A stretch of DNA of 64,000 bases, from NCBI GenBank assembly GCA_049274895.1, contig JBASTM010000008.1, forward strand, positions 645-64,644, in the 5' to 3' direction. Both the position numbers and the translations under genes were made by a program. Under the pieces are notes generated by a model, which was not told the origin of the DNA, did not search any database, and saw only the letters and a program-made list of their open reading frames with translations. This stretch comes from Minisyncoccia bacterium. GTDB lineage: Bacteria; Patescibacteriota; Minisyncoccia; JACQLN01. Shown piece after piece: positions 9,441 through 59,551 of this stretch (position 1 is its first letter; every line of letters starts with the position of its first letter).

Positions 9441-9572
9441 GCAGTATTCTTGAATTAGTCCGAACGCACTTTTCCGAAAAAATTCCCCCGCGAAAATTCG
9501 GAAAGGCGGCGGAGCCGCACCGCTGACAATTTCAAGTTTTTCCCTGCCTGCCGGCAGGCAGGTTTGGCGGCA
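9441..9572. repeat. GC-rich noncoding element, copy 1 (shares ends with 58109-58370) carrying the palindrome CCTGCCTGCCGGCAGGCAGG
   Basis: 31-nt 5' block GCAGTATTCTTGAATTAGTCCGAACGCACTT and 3' block ACAA.TTTTCCCTGCC…GTTTGGCGGC are shared with the second copy; perfect 20-nt palindrome at 9542-9562. Confidence 0.6.
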
Positions 9573-10299: not shown

Positions 10300-10438
10300 A
10301 AAGAATTTTATGATTTTGATTAAAAATTTTTCTTCCCCCAAAATGCGAAATCGTGAATTCGTTTTTACCCCCAAAATTGAATACCAATTAGTCGCCGAGC
10401 GAAGCGAGGCGAACCAAAACTCTTTGACTTTTCCTGTC
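10300..10438 (-). repeat. Conserved ~130-nt module between tRNA-Arg and the downstream gene (copy 1 of 2)
   Basis: About 90% identical to 59340-59468 located after tRNA-Leu(GAG); contains GTCGCCGAGCGAAGCGAGGCGAACC and GGGGGAAGAAAAATTTTTAATC just before the ATG of the downstream gene. Confidence 0.7.
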
Positions 10439-10514
10439 TGGTGTCCCTGGCAGGAATTGAACCTGCGATCTCTTCCTCCGCAGGGAAGCGCTCTATCCGC
10501 TGAGCTACAGGGAC
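10439..10514 (-). tRNA. tRNA-Arg (anticodon GCG) with encoded CCA
   Basis: Minus-strand reading GTCCCTG…D-arm GCTCAGCGGATAGAGC, anticodon stem-loop CTTCC-CTGCGGA-GGAAG, T-arm GCAGG-TTCAATT-CCTGC and ACCA. Confidence 0.7.
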
Positions 10515-11887: not shown

Positions 11888-12457
11888 TTATTGCCCATCT
11901 TTTGTTCGATGCCGAAGTTCCTTACCCCAAACATCTGTCTCTAGGTTCAGTACGTCAAAATATCCATTTCCGCCCGTTCTCAATTCTTGCGAGATATTAT
12001 TTTTTGAGGAGAAAATAAAAACTTGTTTGTTTCCTTTTTTCAAATAGGTTACAAGTGCTAGAAAATCCGAATCTCCTGTAAATAAAACGGCGGTGTCATA
12101 TTTTGATGCATGATGGATTGCGTCGATTGTTATTTCTACATCCATATTTCCTTTCTCTTGAATAGATTCGCCGTGTTCGTCCGCGATAGAGATCCTTTTT
12201 AGTTCTTTTTTCCGTACTATAAATTTAAGTCCTTTTTTTAGGTAGGTCAAAAATTTATGCTTTCCATCAAGACTGTATTTTCTCGTACCATCAGCGGGAT
12301 ATGCCGTGTAATAAAATACTTGAATTGAAGTAGCGTTTAATTTGTTTTTAATATAGCTGATCAATTTTTCGTAATCTAAAAACTTCCCTTTGGCTTTTTG
12401 TGCGGCCCATAGATTGGAAGCATCAATAAAAACATAGATTTTCTTACTCCGGAACAT
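11888..12457 (-). CDS. NYN-domain (LabA/PIN-like) putative RNase
   Basis: KIYVFIDASNLW…VLFTGDSDFLALV is characteristic of NYN/DUF88; the start is set at MFRSKK because the upstream extension overlaps tRNA-flank repeats. Confidence 0.6.
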   Translation of the reverse strand: MFRSKKIYVFIDASNLWAAQKAKGKFLDYEKLISYIKNKLNATSIQVFYYTAYPADGTRKYSLDGKHKFLTYLKKGLKFIVRKKELKRISIADEHGESIQEKGNMDVEITIDAIHHASKYDTAVLFTGDSDFLALVTYLKKGNKQVFIFSSKNNISQELRTGGNGYFDVLNLETDVWGKELRHRTKDGQ

Positions 12458-12505
12458 ATTTTTTAGGTTCGTAACTTGGATACAGTCAATATGTCTATAA
12501 ACTTG

Positions 12506-12632
12506 GCGGCGGGGGTGAGATTCCTTTCGCTCCGACTCAAGTCGGGTCGCTGCGCGCACTCGCTCCCTTCTCATCTCACTCGCACGCCAAGACTTTGGCG
12601 TGCTCCCCCATCCTCGCTCACTTTGTTCGCTG
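12506..12632 (-). repeat. Structured insert downstream of tRNA-Ser(TGA) ending in an 18-nt direct copy of the tRNA 3' end
   Basis: GCGGCGGGGGTGAGATTC at 12632-12649 is repeated at 12506-12523; the spacer shares ACAAAGTGAGC / GAGATGAGAAGGG / GGAGCGAAAG motifs with the tRNA-Glu flank. Confidence 0.6.
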
Positions 12633-12719
12633 CGGCGGGGGTGAGATTCGAACTCACGAGGGGCTTTCACCCCTAACAGTTTTCAGGACTGTCCTATTCA
12701 ACCGCTCTAGCACCCCGCC
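12633..12719 (-). tRNA. tRNA-Ser (anticodon TGA), type II
   Basis: GGCGGGG acceptor, anticodon stem-loop ACAGT-CCTGAAA-ACTGT, long variable arm AGGGGTGAAAGCCCCTC and T-arm GTGAG-TTCGAAT-CTCAC. Confidence 0.8.
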
Positions 12720-12900: not shown

Positions 12901-13025
12901 GGAGGCGTGGCCGAGTGGGCTGGGGGCTGTGGGACAGCGCCCAGCGGGTTGCAAAAGCAACCCGGGAGTCCGAGGCCACACATATTTTTGATTGAGTCCC
13001 GCCTTTGGGCGGGACGAGAAAATAC
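12901..13025 (+). repeat. Upstream flank of tRNA-Ser(GCT) beginning with an 18-nt direct copy of the tRNA 5' end
   Basis: GGAGGCGTGGCCGAGTGG at 12901-12918 and 13026-13043; the spacer contains the same CGGGTTGCAAAAGCAACCCG hairpin as the tRNA-Ser(TGA) upstream insert, in opposite orientation. Confidence 0.6.
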
Positions 13026-13113
13026 GGAGGCGTGGCCGAGTGGCTTAAGGCAGCAGTTTGCTAAACTGCGGGGGTCTAAAAAGCCCCACGAAGGTTCGAA
13101 TCCTTCCGCCTCC
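13026..13113 (+). tRNA. tRNA-Ser (anticodon GCT), type II
   Basis: Acceptor GGAGGCG/CGCCTCC, anticodon stem-loop GCAGT-TTGCTAA-ACTGC, long variable arm and T-arm GAAGG-TTCGAAT-CCTTC. Confidence 0.8.
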
Positions 13114-13164
13114 GCATTGACAACTTTTTATCGGCATGACCCGAGTGCCTATAAAAAAGTTGAA

Positions 13165-13203: not shown

Positions 13204-14112
13204 CTACTCTTCAATCATCGTTATTTTTTTATCTTTGTAGTTTAGTCTGCTTCGCAGATTTGCGAGCAGTTCACGCTTGTCTGATACGCTACCTTCTTTC
13301 AGTAGATATCTAGCATATTGGCGGATGTTCACATCATTTTCTTCGACCAGTGCTTTTCCGATCTGACCATTCACGATCTTCTGTAACTTATTGAACCGCC
13401 TAATTTCATCCTCGAGTTTCTGTCTCATGCCAAGCTCATTGATATTTACCTTATCCATAATTTTTAGAAACTCATCAATAAGTTCTTCCTCACGAATATA
13501 TTTGTTTTTGCAGTTGCGATCTCTTGCCCGACTGCATCTGTAGTAGATGTAGTGTGCCGACGTGCCATCTTTGAGTGGTTTCCATTTTTCCTCAGCTGAT
13601 ATGCCGGACTGGCAGTACCCGCAGGTGAATAATTTTGTGAAGGCGAATTCTTTATTCTCCCTGACTATTTGATCGCGCTTCAGTTGTGCTTGAGCTTTTT
13701 CAAACAACTCTTGGGTGATAAGCGGTTGATGTTTACCTTGATACCAATTACCACCCTTTCTTGGGTATTCAAACAGCCCGTAATAGAAGGGGTTATCAAG
13801 TATGCGATAAACCCCGGAGAGTGTGAGTGGCTTATTACCTCTGGTATGGAAATTCAGTTCAAACTTGAGCCAGTTGTAAATCTTTCTGCCCGAGTAATGT
13901 TCATATGCGACCTTCTCGAAAATTTTCTTTACAGTCGGCGCTCGGAGCGAATCAATGGCAATCTGACATTTCTTATCCATGAGTTTCTGATTGAGATAGC
14001 CAAGTGGTGCCACTCCCGGCCATAAACCCATCTCCACCCTTGTTCGCAATCCTCTTTTAACATTAATGCCTCGATTGTCGTTTTCGAGCTTCGCTTGTGA
14101 GCCTAAAATCAT
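13204..14112 (-). pseudogene. Large serine recombinase fragment lacking the N-terminal resolvase catalytic domain
   Basis: Begins at the alphaE-helix-like QAKLENDNRGINVKRGL, then the recombinase domain (GLWPGVAPLGY) and zinc ribbon (CGYCQ…YYRCSRARDRNC) with a coiled-coil tail; there is no room upstream for the Ser-nucleophile domain because the Nudix gene abuts it. Confidence 0.55.
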
Positions 14113-26940: not shown

Positions 26941-27152
26941 GGGCTTTGTCTAAAAATTTGTCCCGTACGATACGGGACAAATTTTTAGGAACAAAACCTT
27001 ACCCCGCCCTAATTCTGTTTGCGAACTGCGATTTTCCGTGAGCTCGAGCGAAGCGCTTCGCTCGAAATCATTGGAAGTATCAAGATCGTGGCTGGAATTA
27101 GGGCGGGGTTCTATATTTTACAACTATTCGCTTTGCTCACAGGTAAAATATG
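26938..27152 (+). repeat. Modular intergenic cassette, copy A (rpsJ to rplC)
   Basis: Starts TAAGGGCTTTGTCTAAAAA on the stop codon; hairpin CTAAAAATTTGTCCCGTAcgaTACGGGACAAATTTTTAG; long-range stem ACCCCGCCCTAATTC…GAATTAGGGCGGGGT; ends …CTATTCGCTTTGCTCACAGGTAAAATATG. Confidence 0.65.
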
Positions 27153-48314: not shown

Positions 48315-48719
48315 GTGGGGTCGTCCATTAAAATGAAAAAGGATTTTCAAAAATGGCATAACCAAAAACGGCATATTGAAAATGAGCGGCCGCGCGTATT
48401 TTTTAAGGAACGGGAAATTTGGTTTTGCCACCTTGGCGAAAATGTCGGTTTTGAACAAGATGGCAGGGGCGATGAATTTCTGCGCCCGATAGTGGTATTA
48501 AAAAAATTCAATAATGAAGTCCTCTGGGTAGTTCCTTTAACCAAAACCGATAAGAAAAATAAGTATTATTTTCCATTTTCTTTCAATAATGAAACAAGTG
48601 TTGCCATATTATCGCAAATACGGCTTGTTGATGCCAAGCGCTTAAAATACAAGATGGGTGATATGAAAGTTGAGTATTTTAAGGTCCTAAAGAACAAAAT
48701 CAGGCAATTTCTTGCCTGA
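48315..48719 (+). CDS. MazF/PemK-like toxin-fold protein (no obvious adjacent antitoxin)
   Basis: REIWFCHLGENVGFEQDGRGDEFLRPIVVL…VVPLTKTDKK resembles the MazF/Kid pattern. Confidence 0.4.
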   Translation: MGSSIKMKKDFQKWHNQKRHIENERPRVFFKEREIWFCHLGENVGFEQDGRGDEFLRPIVVLKKFNNEVLWVVPLTKTDKKNKYYFPFSFNNETSVAILSQIRLVDAKRLKYKMGDMKVEYFKVLKNKIRQFLA

Positions 48720-48911: not shown

Positions 48912-50369
48912 ATGAAGAATCTCAAAATCCCCGATTACGTAAAAAACATATTAAGCCAGCTGGAGAAAGCCGGATACCAAGCGTATCTGGTGGGCGGGTG
49001 CGTGCGCGATTTACTGATGGATCGTGTGCCTTGGGATTGGGATGTAACCACCAATGCCAAACCGGAGGCGATCCAAAAGATATTTACCGACAGCGTCTAT
49101 GAAAATGATTTTGGCACGGTGGGAGTCAAAATCAGACACAGCGAGGATAGAACCGAGATCGTGGAGGTGACGCCTTACCGCAAAGAGGAATCATACAGCG
49201 ACAAGCGTCATCCCGACCGAGTCATATTTACGGAAGGCGTTGAGGAGGATTTGGCCCGGAGGGATTTTACCGTAAATGCTTTGGCGATGGATTCTAAAGG
49301 GAATATTATTGATCCTTTTGATGGCGAGAAAGACATTAAATCAAAAATCATTCGGGCGGTGGGTGAGCCGGAAAAAAGGTTTGAAGAAGATGCCTTGCGC
49401 CTGATGCGGGCGGTGCGGCTCGCGGCTCAACTGGATTTTGAAATTGAGTCCCAGACCAAATCGGCCATCAAATCAAAAGCCGGTTTGCTAAAAATGATCG
49501 CCCACGAAAGAATCCGCGACGAATTGATCAAACTGGTTGAATCGGACAACCCGGAGAGGGGTATTGTGCTGATGCAGGAACTAGGCCTTTTGAAAATCGT
49601 TTTGCCGGAAGTGGAAGAAGGTGTGGGCGTGGCCCAAAACAAGCACCATATTTATAATGTTTTTGAACATTTGGTAAAGTCGCTGGGCTGGGCGGCCAAA
49701 TACGGTTTTAACGTCTACGTTAGATTCGCCAGTTTGCTGCACGACGTGGGCAAACCCCGGGCTAAAGAAGGCGAGGGGCCGGAGGCCAGTTTCCACGGTC
49801 ACGAATTTATCGGCGCCAAGATGACGGCCCGGGCTTTGGAGCGCTTAAAATTCCCCAAGGATTTTATAGAAAAAGTTTACACGCTGGTGCGCTACCATAT
49901 GTTTTATTACAACGTGGATGAGGTTACGGAGAGGTCAGTCCGCCGGCTGGTGCGCAAAGCCGGGCCGGAAAATATGGCCGAGCTGTTGGAACTGCGGCAA
50001 GCGGAACGCAAGGGCTCGGGCGTGCCCAAAGCCGAGCCCTACAAACTGCGCCACCTAAAGTATATGATAGAGAAAGTTTCACGAGATCCGCTGACGGTGG
50101 GCATGTTAAAAGTGAACGGCGACGATGTGATGCAAACGCTCGGTGTTGAGCCCGGACCCAAAGTGGGCTATATTCTTAATGCCTTGCTGGAGGAGGTGAT
50201 TGACGAACCCGGCCGCAACGACCGCGAACATTTGTTGGATCGGATGAAAGAATTGAACCAGCTGCCGCTCTCGGAATTGGTGAAACTGGCCGAATCGGGC
50301 AAAGAAAAATTGGGGGAGGAAAAAGAAAAAGAGGATGAAGGGATAAAAGAGAAATACTATGTGAAATAA
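48912..50369 (+). CDS. cca: CCA-adding enzyme / poly(A)-polymerase family with HD domain
   Basis: LVGGCVRDLLMDRVPWDWDV nucleotidyltransferase head and an HD domain (HDVGK…H). Confidence 0.75.
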   Translation: MKNLKIPDYVKNILSQLEKAGYQAYLVGGCVRDLLMDRVPWDWDVTTNAKPEAIQKIFTDSVYENDFGTVGVKIRHSEDRTEIVEVTPYRKEESYSDKRHPDRVIFTEGVEEDLARRDFTVNALAMDSKGNIIDPFDGEKDIKSKIIRAVGEPEKRFEEDALRLMRAVRLAAQLDFEIESQTKSAIKSKAGLLKMIAHERIRDELIKLVESDNPERGIVLMQELGLLKIVLPEVEEGVGVAQNKHHIYNVFEHLVKSLGWAAKYGFNVYVRFASLLHDVGKPRAKEGEGPEASFHGHEFIGAKMTARALERLKFPKDFIEKVYTLVRYHMFYYNVDEVTERSVRRLVRKAGPENMAELLELRQAERKGSGVPKAEPYKLRHLKYMIEKVSRDPLTVGMLKVNGDDVMQTLGVEPGPKVGYILNALLEEVIDEPGRNDREHLLDRMKELNQLPLSELVKLAESGKEKLGEEKEKEDEGIKEKYYVK

Positions 50370-50370
50370 T

Positions 50371-50396
50371 TTCCCAGACGTCGGACGTCTGGGAAG
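50371..50396. repeat. Palindrome TTCCCAGACGTCGGACGTCTGGGAA (near-identical copy at 52522-52548)
   Basis: Perfect inverted repeat immediately after the cca stop; no U-run on the + strand. Confidence 0.6.
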
Positions 50397-50409
50397 AACG
50401 GGCCATCGT

Positions 50410-50445
50410 ATACCGGTAGTACGCACGTTTTGGGGTCCGTTCCTC
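50410..50445 (+). other. tRNA 5'-half-like fragment (acceptor plus D-arm) upstream of tRNA-Pro
   Basis: CGGGCCATCGTATACCGGTAGTACGCACG has the same D-arm as tRNA-Pro; its acceptor complement TGGCCCG lies after a T-arm-like GACTGGGTTCAATTCCCAGT at 50632-50660. Confidence 0.35.
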
Positions 50446-50459
50446 TGGTCGGGGAATAG

Positions 50460-50533
50460 TATACCGGTAGTACGTGCGCTTCGGGTGCGTAAAGACCGGG
50501 TTCGATTCCCGGTTCCCCGACCAGAGGAACGGA
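50460..50533 (+). tRNA. tRNA-Pro (anticodon CGG) with encoded CCA
   Basis: CGGGGAA acceptor, anticodon loop TTCGGGT, T-arm CCGGG-TTCGATT-CCCGG and ACCA; its 5' and 3' flanks form a perfect 16-bp leader/trailer helix (GGTCCGTTCCTCTGGT / GACCAGAGGAACGGAC). Confidence 0.75.
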
Positions 50534-50767
50534 CGGGAATGCTACGGATAGCATTCCCCGGAAATTTACGAAGTAAATTTGTGTAGACTGGGTTCAATTC
50601 CCAGTGGCCCGACTGACGAACGAAGGTGAACACATTCGCCGCGCTCGGCTCAGCATCTTCCTCACTCTTGTTTGTCGAGAAGTACTGAGGTCACCAGACC
50701 GAATGTACTGAACGAAAAGGACTCATAGTTAAGTGGTATAACGGTGCATTCGTCCCGCTGGATTTTC

Positions 50768-50841
50768 GGGGGTATAGTATAGCGGTAATACGCGGCATTC
50801 GCATTGCCGAGACCTGGGTTCGATTCCCAGTACCTCCACCA
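50768..50841 (+). tRNA. tRNA-Ala (anticodon CGC) with encoded CCA
   Basis: GGGGGTA acceptor, anticodon stem-loop CGGCA-TTCGCAT-TGCCG and T-arm CTGGG-TTCGATT-CCCAG; flanks GGATTTTCGGG / CCCGAAAATCC form an 11-bp helix. Confidence 0.75.
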
Positions 50842-50985
50842 TACTCCCGAAAATCCCACGGGATTGCGATTTGTAGCTCCGACTTGTCGTCGGAGACAAA
50901 TCGGGAACATTGCTTGGCAATCGGAGCGATTCCGCCGGGTCCACCGAGCTCAACTCGGTCCACTGAAACTTTTTCTCAATCAAGG

Positions 50986-50991
50986 TATAAT
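50986..50991 (+). promoter_or_regulatory. TATAAT -10 box 8 nt upstream of the ATG (leaderless start) for the C39-like peptidase gene
   Basis: caaggTATAATacttaacaATG with no SD. Confidence 0.4.
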
Positions 50992-50999
50992 ACTTAACA

Positions 51000-51764
51000 A
51001 TGGCCAGAATCAAAAAGACTCTCGTAATCCCATCGGCTATTTTAATAACGGTGGCCGGTTTTTATTTCACTCCCATCGGTGGAATAGTCGGCGAAGCCAT
51101 CAATACTTGGTCCATCAAACTGGCCCGCGTGGAAAAAGAAATAATGTACTCGGCCCAGGCGTTGCAGTTTTTTGGAGCCAAGCCCGATGTTAACCTTAAT
51201 GTCCCTTTCCACCGGCAGGAGCACGCTTTGTCGTGCGAGATCGCGGCTTTGAAAATGGCGCTTAATTATCACGGCCAGGTGGTGTCCGAAGGCGAACTGT
51301 TAAAAGACCTGCCTTTTGACACCGCGGATTCCAGAAGTTCGGGCAACATTTGGGGCGATCCGGACAGGGGTTTTGTGGGCGACATTGACGGCAAAGTGCC
51401 CCACGGCGGCTATGGAGTTTATGAAGACCCCATAGTCAATTTGGCCTTGCGGTATCGCGACGCTAAAAAATTGGAGAATGCCACTCTGTTTGATGTTTTG
51501 ACCGAAGTGGCCGGCGGCAATCCGGTTATCGTTTGGGGTTTTATCGCGTCGGGTAAGGATATTTCTTGGCGCACTAAGGAAGACAAATACATTAAAGCCG
51601 TTTTCGGCGAACATACGCGAGTTATTACCGGATTTTCCGGCACGCCCGAGAATCCTAAAACCATTACATTGTTGGATCCTATTTACGGCAAAATCAGAAT
51701 GTCGGCTAAGGGCTTTGAAGGCAACTGGGCCCGATTGGGCAATAAAGCCATAGTGGTATATTGA
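51000..51764 (+). CDS. Papain-fold cysteine peptidase, C39-like (C39_2/YvpB-like)
   Basis: N-terminal TM/signal, then Q…LSCEIAALKMAL (Cys) and a downstream His region. Confidence 0.45.
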   Translation: MARIKKTLVIPSAILITVAGFYFTPIGGIVGEAINTWSIKLARVEKEIMYSAQALQFFGAKPDVNLNVPFHRQEHALSCEIAALKMALNYHGQVVSEGELLKDLPFDTADSRSSGNIWGDPDRGFVGDIDGKVPHGGYGVYEDPIVNLALRYRDAKKLENATLFDVLTEVAGGNPVIVWGFIASGKDISWRTKEDKYIKAVFGEHTRVITGFSGTPENPKTITLLDPIYGKIRMSAKGFEGNWARLGNKAIVVY

Positions 51765-51768
51765 TCAA

Positions 51769-52308
51769 ATGGAATTCCTAAAACGGCCGCTGGCTATAAC
51801 CGACGTAGAAACAACCGGTCTTGATTACGGCTTGCACGAGATAATAGAAATCGGCCTGGTTTTAGCCGACCAAAAAAATCTGAAGGTTTTGGACGAGTGG
51901 TCGGTTAAAGTGAAACCGCGCAAAATAAAAACGGCCGCCGAACCGGCGCTCAAAGTGGCTGGTTACAACAAACTGGATTGGCTGGAGGCCATCAGTTTGG
52001 AGGCGGCGATGGAAGTGTATTCCAAAAAAACCAAAAATGCCATTCTTGTGGCGCAAAACTCTTTTTTTGATTGGTCGTTTTTAAGCGAGGCCTTCAAAGC
52101 CACCGGCGTGGAGGACCATACCGATTACCATCGGGTGGATTTGTTCACCATCGGCTGGTCAAAGGCGCACGAACTCCACGGCCTTAAAAAATTTACCTTA
52201 AAAGAGATGTGCCGGTATTTTTGCCTTGAGCCCGAACCAATGCCGCACCGCGCCATAAACGGCGCTCGCAAAGCCCTGGAGGTTTTGAGAAAATTAAGAG
52301 GTGTTTAG
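51769..52308 (+). CDS. DEDD-family 3'-5' exonuclease (DnaQ/epsilon-like)
   Basis: Exo I motif ITDVETTGL and the H-containing Exo III region. Confidence 0.65.
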   Translation: MEFLKRPLAITDVETTGLDYGLHEIIEIGLVLADQKNLKVLDEWSVKVKPRKIKTAAEPALKVAGYNKLDWLEAISLEAAMEVYSKKTKNAILVAQNSFFDWSFLSEAFKATGVEDHTDYHRVDLFTIGWSKAHELHGLKKFTLKEMCRYFCLEPEPMPHRAINGARKALEVLRKLRGV

Positions 52309-58370: not shown

Positions 58371-59384
58371 TTAATTAGTTCTTTGCCAACTTTCGCCAGC
58401 ATTTGAACTCCGATAGATTATACCATCTTCACTAGAAGCAGTAAGTTCTCTGGAATTTTTGGGATTGATGGCAATGGCAGTAATCTTGATACCATTAAGA
58501 CCGTCTAGTTTTTTCCAGTTTTGTCCAGCGTCAATCGTTTTCCAAGCCCCGGTTTGTGTGCCTGCATATATAACAGATAAATCTTTATGAAGAGTGGCAA
58601 GAGTATAAACTGTTGTGTTGTCAAAAACATTTGTTGTCTTTGTCCAGCCACAGAAACAACTGAAAGATTGGAAAACGCCGTCAGCCGTTCCCGCCAAAAG
58701 GAGACCCCAATTATCCCAGCCCATAGATTTATCCATCGAAGTTTGTACTGCCATGTATGCAAACGATCTTATTCCGGGATTCTCTGGTCCATCATCCATA
58801 CGCTTCCACGAAACGCCGCCGTCTTTACTTTTGAACACCCCATTATCAACAGAGTAGGCAAAAAGTAAATCGGGATTGCGTTGATTAATCGCCAAGCCAT
58901 GAATATCCGTACCTTTTATCCCATCATCAGAACGCATCCAAGTAATACCGCCGTCAATACTTTTTATGACACCTAAATCATGCCCACCGGCAAAAATTGT
59001 TTTCTGGTTTCGAGGGTCAACAACGATACTCATCCAATCATCAGCGTTGACACTTCCCTTTACCGAAACCTTTTGCCAAGTTTTGCCGCCATCGTCGCTC
59101 TTGAATAGACCGCCGTGTGTTCCTAAAAGTAAATTGCCTTCGGTGTCGTAGGTAATAGCATGGATATGTTGAGCTCCGGGTATTACAGAATTGCTAGAAC
59201 CACCTTCATCGCTATGAGACATTACTGTTTTATTAACCGAAGTATCTGCCGGAGTGTTAGTAGATTTGTTACTCACGCCCAAGAAATAGCCAACTACTAT
59301 GGCACCAACAATAAAAACTGGAATTAATAATTTGTTGTTCATATGATTAAAAATTTTTCTTCCCCCAAAATGCGGAACCGCCAA
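58371..59384 (-). CDS. BNR/Asp-box repeat beta-propeller protein (Ycf48/sialidase-like), membrane-anchored
   Basis: Repeated S-x-D-G-G-x-T-W motifs (SDDGGKTW, SIDGGITW, SKDGGVSW, SNAGESW); N-terminal TM helix. Confidence 0.6.
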   Translation of the reverse strand: MAVPHFGGRKIFNHMNNKLLIPVFIVGAIVVGYFLGVSNKSTNTPADTSVNKTVMSHSDEGGSSNSVIPGAQHIHAITYDTEGNLLLGTHGGLFKSDDGGKTWQKVSVKGSVNADDWMSIVVDPRNQKTIFAGGHDLGVIKSIDGGITWMRSDDGIKGTDIHGLAINQRNPDLLFAYSVDNGVFKSKDGGVSWKRMDDGPENPGIRSFAYMAVQTSMDKSMGWDNWGLLLAGTADGVFQSFSCFCGWTKTTNVFDNTTVYTLATLHKDLSVIYAGTQTGAWKTIDAGQNWKKLDGLNGIKITAIAINPKNSRELTASSEDGIIYRSSNAGESWQRTN

Positions 59385-59468
59385 TTCGTTTTTACCCCCA
59401 AAATTGAATACAAATTAGTCGCCGAGCGAAGCGAGGCGAACCAAAACTCTTTGACTTTTCCTGTCTGG
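59340..59468 (-). repeat. Conserved ~130-nt module between tRNA-Leu(GAG) and the downstream gene (copy 2 of 2)
   Basis: Near-identical to 10300-10438. Confidence 0.7.
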
Positions 59469-59551
59469 TGCGCGGGGGGAGACTCGAACTCCCAAGCCTT
59501 ACGGCATACGCACCTCAAGCGTACGTGTATACCAAATTCCACCACCCGCGC
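59466..59551 (-). tRNA. tRNA-Leu (anticodon GAG), type II, with encoded CCA
   Basis: GCGCGGG acceptor, anticodon stem-loop TACGC-TTGAGGT-GCGTA, long variable arm and T-arm GGGAG-TTCGAGT-CTCCC. Confidence 0.8.

Follow-up and report, generated by a model that had tools for sequence, protein, structure and literature searches.

Introduction

Integrases often target the anticodon or T loops of tRNA genes and restore the gene with sequence borne by the element, and in bacteria a duplex of 22 base pairs (bp), about two helical turns, is the minimal RNase III substrate. REPINs, reportedly described by Bertels and Rainey in 2011, are said to be miniature palindromic elements that are mobilised in trans by IS200-like Y1 transposases (RAYTs). 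Group I introns lie in the anticodon loops of Patescibacteria genes for tRNA-Asn and for tRNA-Asp, at position 35/36 (PMC13011429). Here we analyse a 64,000-nucleotide (nt) stretch of contig JBASTM010000008.1 (assembly GCA_049274895.1), hereafter the window, whose positions are used as coordinates throughout, and in it a locus where a tRNA-Pro gene and a tRNA-Ala gene are each split in the anticodon loop by an insert that carries, clamped in a helix, a complete tRNA gene of the same amino-acid identity. We call such an arrangement a nest, and its two genes inner and outer. Nothing comparable among nested, split or disrupted bacterial tRNA genes was described in the literature searched, so this "Russian-doll" arrangement of tRNA within tRNA is apparently undescribed. 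We favour the reading, at a probability of roughly 60%, that small inserted cassettes split the resident tRNA-Pro and tRNA-Ala(CGC) genes and replaced them, and that the helix serves to process and insulate the inner tRNA.

tRNAs were called with ARAGORN and the Rfam tRNA model (Rfam threshold 29 bits) and RNAs were folded with RNAfold. Relatives of the locus were found through homologues of its CCA-adding enzyme, taking one genome per species, which gave 80 loci, all from Patescibacteria/Parcubacteria; labels such as L001 and L002 denote fetched related loci, and the related sequences used are metagenome assemblies. Forty-nine open reading frames (ORFs) of the window were scanned against Pfam.

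Each of two split tRNA genes contains a complete tRNA gene

ARAGORN and Rfam call only two tRNAs between 50405 and 50960, tRNA-Pro(CGG) and tRNA-Ala(CGC), and each lies within a second tRNA gene. The tRNA-Pro gene at 50399-50612 is split after nucleotide 37 by a 143-nt insert containing the complete tRNA-Pro(CGG), and the decayed tRNA-Ala(CGC) gene at 50719-50943 is split after nucleotide 35 by an insert containing the complete tRNA-Ala(CGC). The parts of the two nests are listed here (family 2 is defined below).

50399-50434, plus strand: 5' half (nucleotides 1-37) of the outer, resident tRNA-Pro, with acceptor strand CGGGCCA, D arm, CACGT as its anticodon-stem strand and TTTGGG as its loop (the anticodon now reads TGG)
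50435-50449, plus strand: 5' arm of the Pro clamp helix, GTCCGTTCCTCTGGT, pairing with 50520-50534
50450-50523, plus strand: inner tRNA-Pro(CGG), complete, CCA encoded (ARAGORN; Rfam 55 bits)
50520-50534, plus strand: 3' arm of the Pro clamp helix, ACCAGAGGAACGGAC, overlapping A73 and the CCA of the inner tRNA and pairing with 50435-50449
50535-50558, plus strand: insert hairpin 1, GGGAATGCTA-CGGA-TAGCATTCCC; all family-2 inserts have a hairpin here, of varying sequence
50559-50580, plus strand: insert hairpin 2, CGGAAATTTAC-GAA-GTAAATTT, whose final TTT is tRNA positions 38-40
50578-50612, plus strand: 3' half of the outer tRNA-Pro, with TTT, GTG, variable loop TAGA, T arm CTGGG TTCAATT CCCAG, acceptor strand TGGCCCG and A73, without CCA
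50719-50752, plus strand: 5' half (nucleotides 1-35) of the outer, resident tRNA-Ala(CGC), GGACTCA TA GTTA AGTGGTA TAAC G GTGCA TTCG, orthologous to the plain tRNA-Ala of L005 and L006
50753-50767, plus strand: 5' arm of the Ala clamp, TCCCG-CT-GGATTTTC, 100% identical in L003
50768-50841, plus strand: complete inner tRNA-Ala(CGC), which has G3.U70 and an encoded CCA (ARAGORN; Rfam 68 bits)
50849-50863, plus strand: 3' arm of the Ala clamp, GAAAATCC-CA-CGGGA (from pairing, folding and comparison with L003)
50863-50907, plus strand: separate palindromic module, ATTGCGATTTGT...ACAAATCGGGAA, with stems 100% and interior 65% identical to L003
50908-50943, plus strand: wreck of the outer tRNA-Ala 3' half, with CATTG (36-40), a remnant of a T-loop insertion, TTCCGCC, acceptor GGGTCC and A73 (from alignment with L003 and L005)

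When the halves of the outer tRNA-Pro are joined across 50434-50578, ARAGORN calls a tRNA-Pro(TGG). A preliminary description of this DNA had paired the CGGGCCA half with a downstream partner; this pairing stands, at a distance of about 55-90 nt rather than the 100 nt or so first given, and because the halves are in normal order its suggestion of a permuted gene falls away. The same description had a perfect 16-bp helix around tRNA-Pro. There are 15 perfect pairs, between 50435-50449 and 50520-50534 and taking in A73 and the encoded CCA; the two 16-mers are offset by one, and G50434 lies opposite G50535, so that the sixteenth pair does not form. The clamp stacks on the 7-bp acceptor stem to give 22 continuous pairs, which leaves only about 43 nt of the insert outside helix and tRNA. 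RNAfold on 50390-50625 recovers the outer acceptor stem and T arm, the clamp and two further hairpins (z = -7.7). The inner tRNA-Pro carries C1-G72 and A73, and scores well above the Rfam threshold as a canonical bacterial tRNA.

In the tRNA-Ala nest the second 5' half that had been noticed ahead of tRNA-Ala is indeed present, from 50719 onwards. The helix outside the inner tRNA consists of the 8 bp of GGATTTTC/GAAAATCC and the 5 bp of TCCCG/CGGGA, separated by a 2x2 internal loop. An 11-mer clamp proposed earlier, GGATTTTCGGG/CCCGAAAATCC, exists as complementary sequence, but it is not a helix external to the tRNA, since its GGG is tRNA nucleotides 1-3. The fold has a z-score of -5.9, and the inner tRNA-Ala, with its G3.U70 pair and 68 bits, is canonical as well. 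The outer gene is missing the 3' strand of its anticodon stem and the 5' strand of its T stem. In the window, a separate palindromic module encloses the Ala cargo. This module, ATTGCGATTTGT...GGGAA, is found free of tRNA in L042 and L056 and in reverse orientation in L028 and in a T loop of L056, so that evidence for two orientations holds for the module.

ORFs that overlap the nests are spurious, as had been suspected, being antisense or sense readings of tRNA sequence. ARAGORN in intron mode (-i, up to 300 nt) does not call the outer genes, and at a lowered threshold it adds one spurious antisense call. We infer that the inner tRNA-Pro(CGG) at 50450-50523 and the inner tRNA-Ala(CGC) at 50768-50841 are the working genes.

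Relatives hold uninterrupted orthologues of the outer genes

The gene order CCA-adding enzyme, tRNA-Pro(CGG), tRNA-Ala(CGC) is widely conserved among Parcubacteria relatives. In L002, L005 and L007, whose CCA-adding enzymes are 75-81% identical to that of the window, a plain tRNA-Pro(CGG) and a plain tRNA-Ala(CGC) occupy the same position. Aligned with the plain L002 tRNA-Pro(CGG), the outer halves of the window match at 66 of 71 positions (the changes being A26G, A31T, C34T, C40T and G57A), whereas the inner tRNA-Pro matches at only 56 of 71. The inner and outer tRNA-Pro of the window differ from each other at 15 of 71 positions, acceptor and T stems included. Thus the outer halves are the residents, and the helix-borne tRNAs newcomers in their anticodon loops. 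These alignments show insertions into resident tRNA genes, in agreement with the preliminary suggestion of a disrupted tRNA gene carrying a tRNA-containing element, since relatives hold plain, uninterrupted orthologues of the outer halves.

Orthologous sites are polymorphic, being empty in L002, L005 and L007 and filled in the window, L001, L003 and L004. L001 has nested tRNA-Pro and tRNA-Ala genes whose arms differ from those of the window (CCCCGTTAGA...), L004 has another tRNA-Pro nest, and L003 has the Ala unit of the window, in which arms and module stems are 100% identical between the two, the inner tRNA-Ala 94% and the outer 5' half 79%. The comparison shows that insertions occurred independently within a small clade. 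The inner Pro type of the window (CGGGGAA) is the outer type in L001, and L056 holds three nested generations of tRNA-Ala, the outermost with its anticodon mutated to CAC; serial replacement of tRNA generations is thereby shown.

Nests recur across Patescibacteria in at least two insert families

Among the 80 related genome loci, 12 are nested or half-nested (L001, L003, L004, L009, L010, L028 (Gly-CCC), L042, L050, L056, L063, L070 (Arg) and L079). A metagenome scan for two tRNA-Pro D arms lying 28-58 nt apart, with simple repeats removed, gave at least 65 distinct nested loci. Among the matches listed, tRNA calling recognises every one of the 65 inner genes (Pro CGG 29, GGG 17, UGG 14, Gly CCC 4 and Gln CUG 1) and host and cargo always share their amino-acid identity (Pro, Ala, Gly, Gln and Arg across all loci). 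In both nests of the window the cargo lies in the orientation of the host gene. No inverted cargo within plus-strand halves was found at the minus-strand tRNA-Pro genes of L019, L055, L061, L074 and L076. The nested structure and its spread across Patescibacteria are well supported.

Nests occupy the normal positions of their host genes, tRNA-Pro(CGG) after the CCA-adding enzyme and tRNA-Pro(UGG) after a YraN-like gene. We considered recurrent neighbours as possible parts of an element and rejected them: only the CCA-adding enzyme (at Pro-CGG loci) and the YraN-like gene (at Pro-UGG loci) recur, which is ordinary host gene order, and an NAD-kinase-like ORF between the Pro and Ala genes of L001 is also present in L010 and L050.

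The inserts fall into at least two families. Family 2 comprises the tRNA-Pro insert of the window and those of L009, L010, L083, L090, L106, L111, L122, L133, L157 and L168, and has the following plan: an exon ending in TT(T/C)GGG, a G and a 14-16-nt arm, the tRNA, the complementary arm, hairpins 1 and 2, and the exon again from about nucleotide 41. The hairpin 2 motif GAAATTT...AAATTT is kept in L090, L106, L122 and L168. A pairing between anticodon loop and insert, TTTTGGGG with CCCCGGAA (with analogues in L009 and L010), was tried and dropped as unproven, because in subfamily 2a the segment forms its own covarying 4-bp hairpin (CCCC-GAA-GGGG, CCAC-GAA-GTGG, CTCC-GCA-GGAG).

Family 1 inserts lie at site 35/36. 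Their arms open with CCC(C) and close with (G)GGG, after which come T(G/A)A(A/G) and the host GGT. The terminus CCCCGTTAGA... is common to the Pro and Ala genes of L001 and to L164, L175 and L094, and the 3' flank T(G/A)A(A/G)GGT is conserved. CTTG is the target of IS91 (PMC13181058). The notion that family 1 termini CTTG...TGAA and TTCA...CAAG are two DNA orientations of one element, with a link to IS91, was set aside, since the 5' tetranucleotide consists for the most part of nucleotides 32-35 of the host, which read TTCG, ATGG or CTTG depending on its anticodon, and it is only a lead.

Inner genes are intact and outer genes decay

Among the loci compared, the inner tRNAs are always intact and the outer copies are decaying. 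Only 28 of the 65 outer 3' halves among the matches listed are intact, with a T arm and a matching acceptor strand; U33 has been lost from many outer anticodon loops, and extra palindromic insertions lie in the outer D or T loops of L001, L010, L042, L056, L084 and L094. In the window, three of the five changes in the young and nearly intact outer tRNA-Pro (A31T, C34T and C40T) fall in an anticodon arm that is invariant across L002, L005 and L007. The TTT at 38-40 is constant in family 2 while nucleotide 31 is A, T or C, so the 31:39 pair shows no covariation. From this pattern we conclude that the outer genes are probably relics; for pristine cases such as L086, this would hold by analogy with the decayed copies.

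Two small repeats were seen in such relics. The T loops of the unrelated relics L042, L056 and L094 share, in one and the same position (following TTCGA or TTCAA), an insert of about 22 nt starting with CC(T/A)TGGTGAG, which suggests another site-specific small element. A REP-like palindrome, CCTGCCTGCCGGCAGGCAGG, is intergenic at 9538 and 18624 in the window and is also found within the tRNA relics of L028, L042 and L105.

The flanking helix has a fixed length and is selected in RNA

The leader and trailer of the inner tRNAs of the window form duplexes of -37.7 kcal/mol (Pro) and -27.8 kcal/mol (Ala), as against -8 to -23 kcal/mol for its 11 other tRNAs. Among 232 other tRNAs in the window and the 80 related loci, only 0-3 pairs continue the acceptor stem, as against 14-16 in family-2 nests (15-16 in the window, L009 and L010); the distribution is bimodal (0-2 or 14-16 pairs), none of the 232 has a 15-pair extension, and the median flank duplex energy is -28.6 kcal/mol for nested and -10.2 kcal/mol for comparison tRNAs. 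The family-2 arms are 98.5% paired over 13 members of unrelated sequence, and 14 of the 15 pairs change on both sides, but the members were chosen by pairing, so that this count is partly circular and the firmer signal is the fixed helix length of 15±1 pairs. Across all families, mismatches in the arms are more often of the G.U type (76) than of the A.C type (41), and such an excess points to selection acting on the sense strand, in other words the transcript. The helix is thus shown to be selected in the RNA sense.

The 15 and 7 pairs of the Pro stem add up to 22, the sum of 14-16 and 7 is constant across family 2, and such stems have the length (about 20 pairs or more) of RNase III processing stems; the Ala stem, unlike that of Pro, is interrupted. 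The 22-bp duplex hides the RNase P site and the CCA. Since no promoter-like site was found inside 50370-50960, the inner tRNAs must be excised from a longer RNA that includes the relic halves. We can envision that the outer halves are relics still co-transcribed with the inner tRNA, that the stem shields the inner tRNA from mispairing with these near-identical halves, and that it would offer duplex RNA for cleavage, most likely by RNase III, before RNase P and 3' trimming finish the tRNA. It is a reasonable inference that the helix serves RNA processing and insulation, with RNase III as the plausible enzyme. Processing helices of this type had been put forward as an alternative to a disrupted gene; the fixed length (22 pairs with the acceptor stem) and the G.U bias of mismatches on the sense strand are compatible with them, and this idea is probably true as well.

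Origin of the inserts and alternative explanations

How the inserts spread is a more speculative matter, and the weakest step in our reading is that a horizontally spreading cassette, without a protein gene, would replace the gene that it destroys. Empty and filled sites, independent insertions, insert termini and architecture conserved in unrelated contigs, the presence of one arm family in different tRNA genes of L001 (the arms of its Pro and Ala genes are related) and serial replacement all support such a cassette. If the cassette replaces the gene it destroys, then only cargo of host identity would be seen. The strict match of cargo and host might reflect survivorship, only a self-compensating insertion being tolerated, and it fits homologous recombination through the tRNA halves as well. 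Repeated invasion would give several nested generations, and recombination between the inner and outer direct repeats could collapse a nest. The mover might be a single-strand DNA transposase that recognises hairpins and acts in trans; alternatively, DNA might be taken up and then simply recombine homologously through the tRNA halves at its flanks. Somewhat short of an even chance, in our estimation, is the bolder possibility that these are unrecognised selfish "tRNA-replacement" cassettes of Patescibacteria, in which a hairpin-borne tRNA homes into the cognate anticodon loop, kills the gene and takes over its promoter and function, giving rapid turnover of tRNA alleles and nested relics, with the 22-bp stem doubling as a processing signal. 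The resident gene being dead and its function taken over, the host could then not lose the cassette without losing the tRNA.

Several observations, besides the partial circularity of the family-2 pair count, weigh against the favoured reading. No transposase or recombinase travelling with the inserts was found among the window ORFs tested; the sole IS200-like Y1 transposase seen (Pfam Y1_Tnp, E = 4.5e-8) is in L002, whose tRNAs are plain; and the arms are single-copy within the 64-kb window, unlike typical multi-copy miniature elements. The outer tRNA-Pro of the window is almost perfect, with only a U31.U39 mismatch, and ARAGORN accepts its joined halves; in some nests, for example L086, the outer sequence equals the inner. 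Finally, the structure of hairpins 1 and 2 in the Pro insert is retained throughout family 2, which implies a function not accounted for.

The near-perfect outer tRNA-Pro raises the alternative, which we consider unlikely, that the insert is a true intron with a tRNA inside, the outer halves being ligated to a functional Pro(UGG) and the insert providing Pro(CGG). The window halves do fold as a tRNA and read as tRNA-Pro(TGG) when joined, they are split at the canonical 37/38 site, family 2 has a conserved three-helix architecture and mostly TGG outer anticodons, and group I introns are known from Patescibacteria tRNA genes (PMC13011429). Against splicing, no signal of a group I or II intron or of a ribozyme was obtained, the 43 nt or so beyond helix and tRNA are all that such an intron would have, the junction lacks a bulge-helix-bulge motif, and the 31:39 pair does not covary. 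The L002 orthologue, from a close relative, is CGG rather than TGG, outer copies elsewhere in family 2 are plainly dead (that of L010 with an insertion in its D loop, those of L083 and L111 in decay), and the outer tRNA-Ala of the same window is without half of its T arm. The identity or near-identity of inner and outer copies in L086, L009 and L010, together with arm sequences that vary widely among lineages, would fit a local rearrangement with no mobile cassette, in which fold-back or template-switch duplication occurs at tRNA hairpins and the helices are made by repair. The window argues otherwise, since its inner and outer tRNA-Pro differ at 15 of 71 positions and the inner type is the resident type of L001; conserved insert termini in unrelated contigs and different tRNA genes, and conserved family-2 hairpins, point the same way, and we find this origin rather less probable than even the intron.

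Classical integrative elements might also leave scars of this sort, if an integrase, from a phage or an island, had carried out recombination at the anticodon loop and left att-site tRNA fragments behind. Integrases have a general preference for tRNA anticodon and T loops, and the window does contain a truncated serine recombinase (13207-14112) beside a tRNA-Ser with a duplicated 5' fragment at 12901. This origin is nonetheless improbable: the locus has no integrase, and the genes next to it code for the CCA-adding enzyme, a C39-like peptidase and an RNase T-like exonuclease; the inserts span no more than about 140-190 nt; both halves of the old gene flank the full new tRNA, as complementary halves and not as a repeated 3' segment at a distant attR; and an inverted repeat encloses the new tRNA, which att recombination does not make. 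Chance complementarity or faulty assembly, for which nothing speaks beyond the fact that the relatives are metagenome assemblies, we regard as negligible. The architecture is repeated in dozens of independent assemblies, the fold z-scores are -7.7 and -5.9, and a 15-pair extension occurs in 0 of 232 other tRNAs. Chance would leave two ordinary tRNAs and helix-free orthologues; relatives are instead either plain or nested, and all the nested ones have helices.

We are thus brought back to inserted cassettes that replaced the resident genes as the reading that best fits the two nests. As a separate observation, the Y1 transposase of L002 (5529-6188) lies just 3' of its plain tRNA-Ala, amid palindromes CGAAGGGTAACCCTTCG, and the same palindrome also follows the nested tRNA-Ala of L001.

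Neighbourhood of the nests and other features of the window

The gene upstream of the Pro nest is the CCA-adding enzyme (Pfam PolyA_pol, tRNA_NucTran2_2 and HD), which flanks the locus together with an RNase T-like exonuclease gene at 51769-52305; this flanking may be a coincidence. Two structured elements lie outside the inserts:

50371-50395, plus strand: palindrome TTCCCAGACGTCGGACGTCTGGGAA, just after the CCA-adding enzyme gene and outside the nests, terminator-like on the minus strand; also in L007
50682-50708, plus strand: Pro-Ala spacer hairpin GTACTGAG-GTCACCAGAC-CGAATGTAC, outside the inserts; also in L002, L003, L007 and L056

Stem changes in the spacer hairpin are compensatory (GATC..GATC in L003, GCGC..GCGC in L007 and L056), and it has no Rfam match. 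A hammerhead reading of this hairpin, from its CTGAG...CGAA, fails because the core G8, A9 and G12 are absent. The Pro-Ala spacer also has an extra structured segment of about 60 nt at 50613-50681 (GACGAACGAAGGTGA...TCACTCTTGTTTGTCG), which L002 lacks but the metagenome relative L171 has, so that it is probably another small insertion.

Both inner tRNAs have an encoded CCA, which most of the window's 13 tRNAs lack. The only others with one are tRNA-Arg(GCG) (10439-10514, minus strand) and tRNA-Leu(GAG) (59466-59551, minus strand), and a 146-nt repeat, 90% identical between 10317-10462 and 59344-59489, spans the 3' end of each of these two genes plus some 120 nt downstream.

Other tRNA genes have features of their own. 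At 12901-13115 the 5' end of tRNA-Ser(GCT) is repeated as an 18-nt fragment, 125 nt upstream of the intact gene, and the stretch in between contains hairpins and a promoter-like TTGATT. The recombinase ORF next to it, at 13207-14112 (302 amino acids), shares with large serine recombinases the domains Recombinase and Zn_ribbon_recom, but it has no N-terminal catalytic domain. An NYN-domain (nuclease-like) ORF at 11891-12670 abuts tRNA-Ser(TGA), and a MazF/PemK-like toxin ORF at 48315-48716 lies between a glycosyltransferase-like gene and tRNA-Gln. L021 has, at 8325-8465, a tRNA-like gene (acceptor CGGAGCG/CGCTCCG, intact D and T arms, encoded CCA) with an anticodon-loop insertion of about 70 nt that is free of tRNA, and ARAGORN makes no call there. 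Finally, an intergenic repeat family, CGGGGTGCTCAATTTAATAGCTATTCGCTTCGCTCATAGATAAAATTGGCATG, occurs in the window at 27104, 31242, 32628, 41710 and 63885 (about 53-122 nt each), with an adjoining palindrome ACCCAGCACC...GGTGCTGGGT.

Implications

For annotation, tRNA finders give the inner genes only, and the relics end up as spurious ORFs or as intergenic stretches without explanation; anyone taking a census of tRNA sets and introns in Patescibacteria would have to recognise the nested pattern. For evolution, the nests suggest horizontal, allele-by-allele replacement of tRNA genes in tiny genomes, and a datable fossil record of tRNA generations. For RNA processing, the prediction is that some bacterial tRNAs are matured from within a duplex of 22 bp in which the CCA end and the RNase P site are hidden. 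A cassette of this kind, if mobile, would be an unusually small element whose sole cargo is the gene that it destroys, and a clean example of an insertion that is neutral by self-compensation.

Comparison with known systems

The group I introns of Patescibacteria tRNA genes resemble the nests in that the Ala insert and the family 1 inserts also lie at 35/36, and in being patchy among relatives and overlooked by standard tRNA finders. The nested inserts are, however, far too short and carry a complete tRNA, their 5' exons end in G37 (window Pro) or G35 (window Ala and family 1) and not in U, and the host gene decays rather than being maintained. No group I match was found in 50300-51050 even at E ≤ 10; at the gathering score the window and 16 nested loci gave none either, and these sequences had no hit to Rfam intron or ribozyme families; the Rfam hits at E ≤ 10 (SpF41, Plastid-ycf2, permuted tmRNA) are weak chance matches over the tRNA itself.

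With the split, permuted and multi-intron tRNAs of archaea the nests share fragmented genes, leader and trailer helices at the tRNA ends and several insertion positions. They differ in having a bacterial host, in halves that are collinear and 143 nt apart, and in the whole second tRNA inside. A bulge-helix-bulge intron was rejected because inspection and folding find no such geometry at the junctions, the 3' strand of the clamp being followed by insert hairpins and not by exon. No splicing endonuclease or ligase was found among the 49 window ORFs (64 kb of genome) compared with Pfam.

RNase III stems around rRNAs, and in some phage tRNA clusters, are likewise uninterrupted duplexes of about two turns (22 bp) formed from the flanks of a mature RNA. 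Here, unlike there, a single tRNA is enclosed, the discriminator base and CCA are paired, and cleavage is a prediction.

Like REPINs and MITEs (miniature inverted-repeat transposable elements), the inserts are inverted-repeat hairpins without coding capacity that are present or absent among close relatives; tRNA-free versions exist, one module occurs in both orientations, and L002 has a Y1 transposase with flanking palindromes. Unlike those elements, they carry a tRNA at the tip of the hairpin and lie inside tRNA genes rather than between genes, and their arms are diverse, not seen as multi-copy in the window and not demonstrably linked to a transposase. The tRNA-restoring integrative elements differ in another way, since the nested inserts supply a whole tRNA and not a 3' segment, are only about 150 nt long with no integrase, and leave the old gene as two halves; but in both cases the element disrupts a tRNA gene and yet supplies the replacement, so that the insertion is tolerated.

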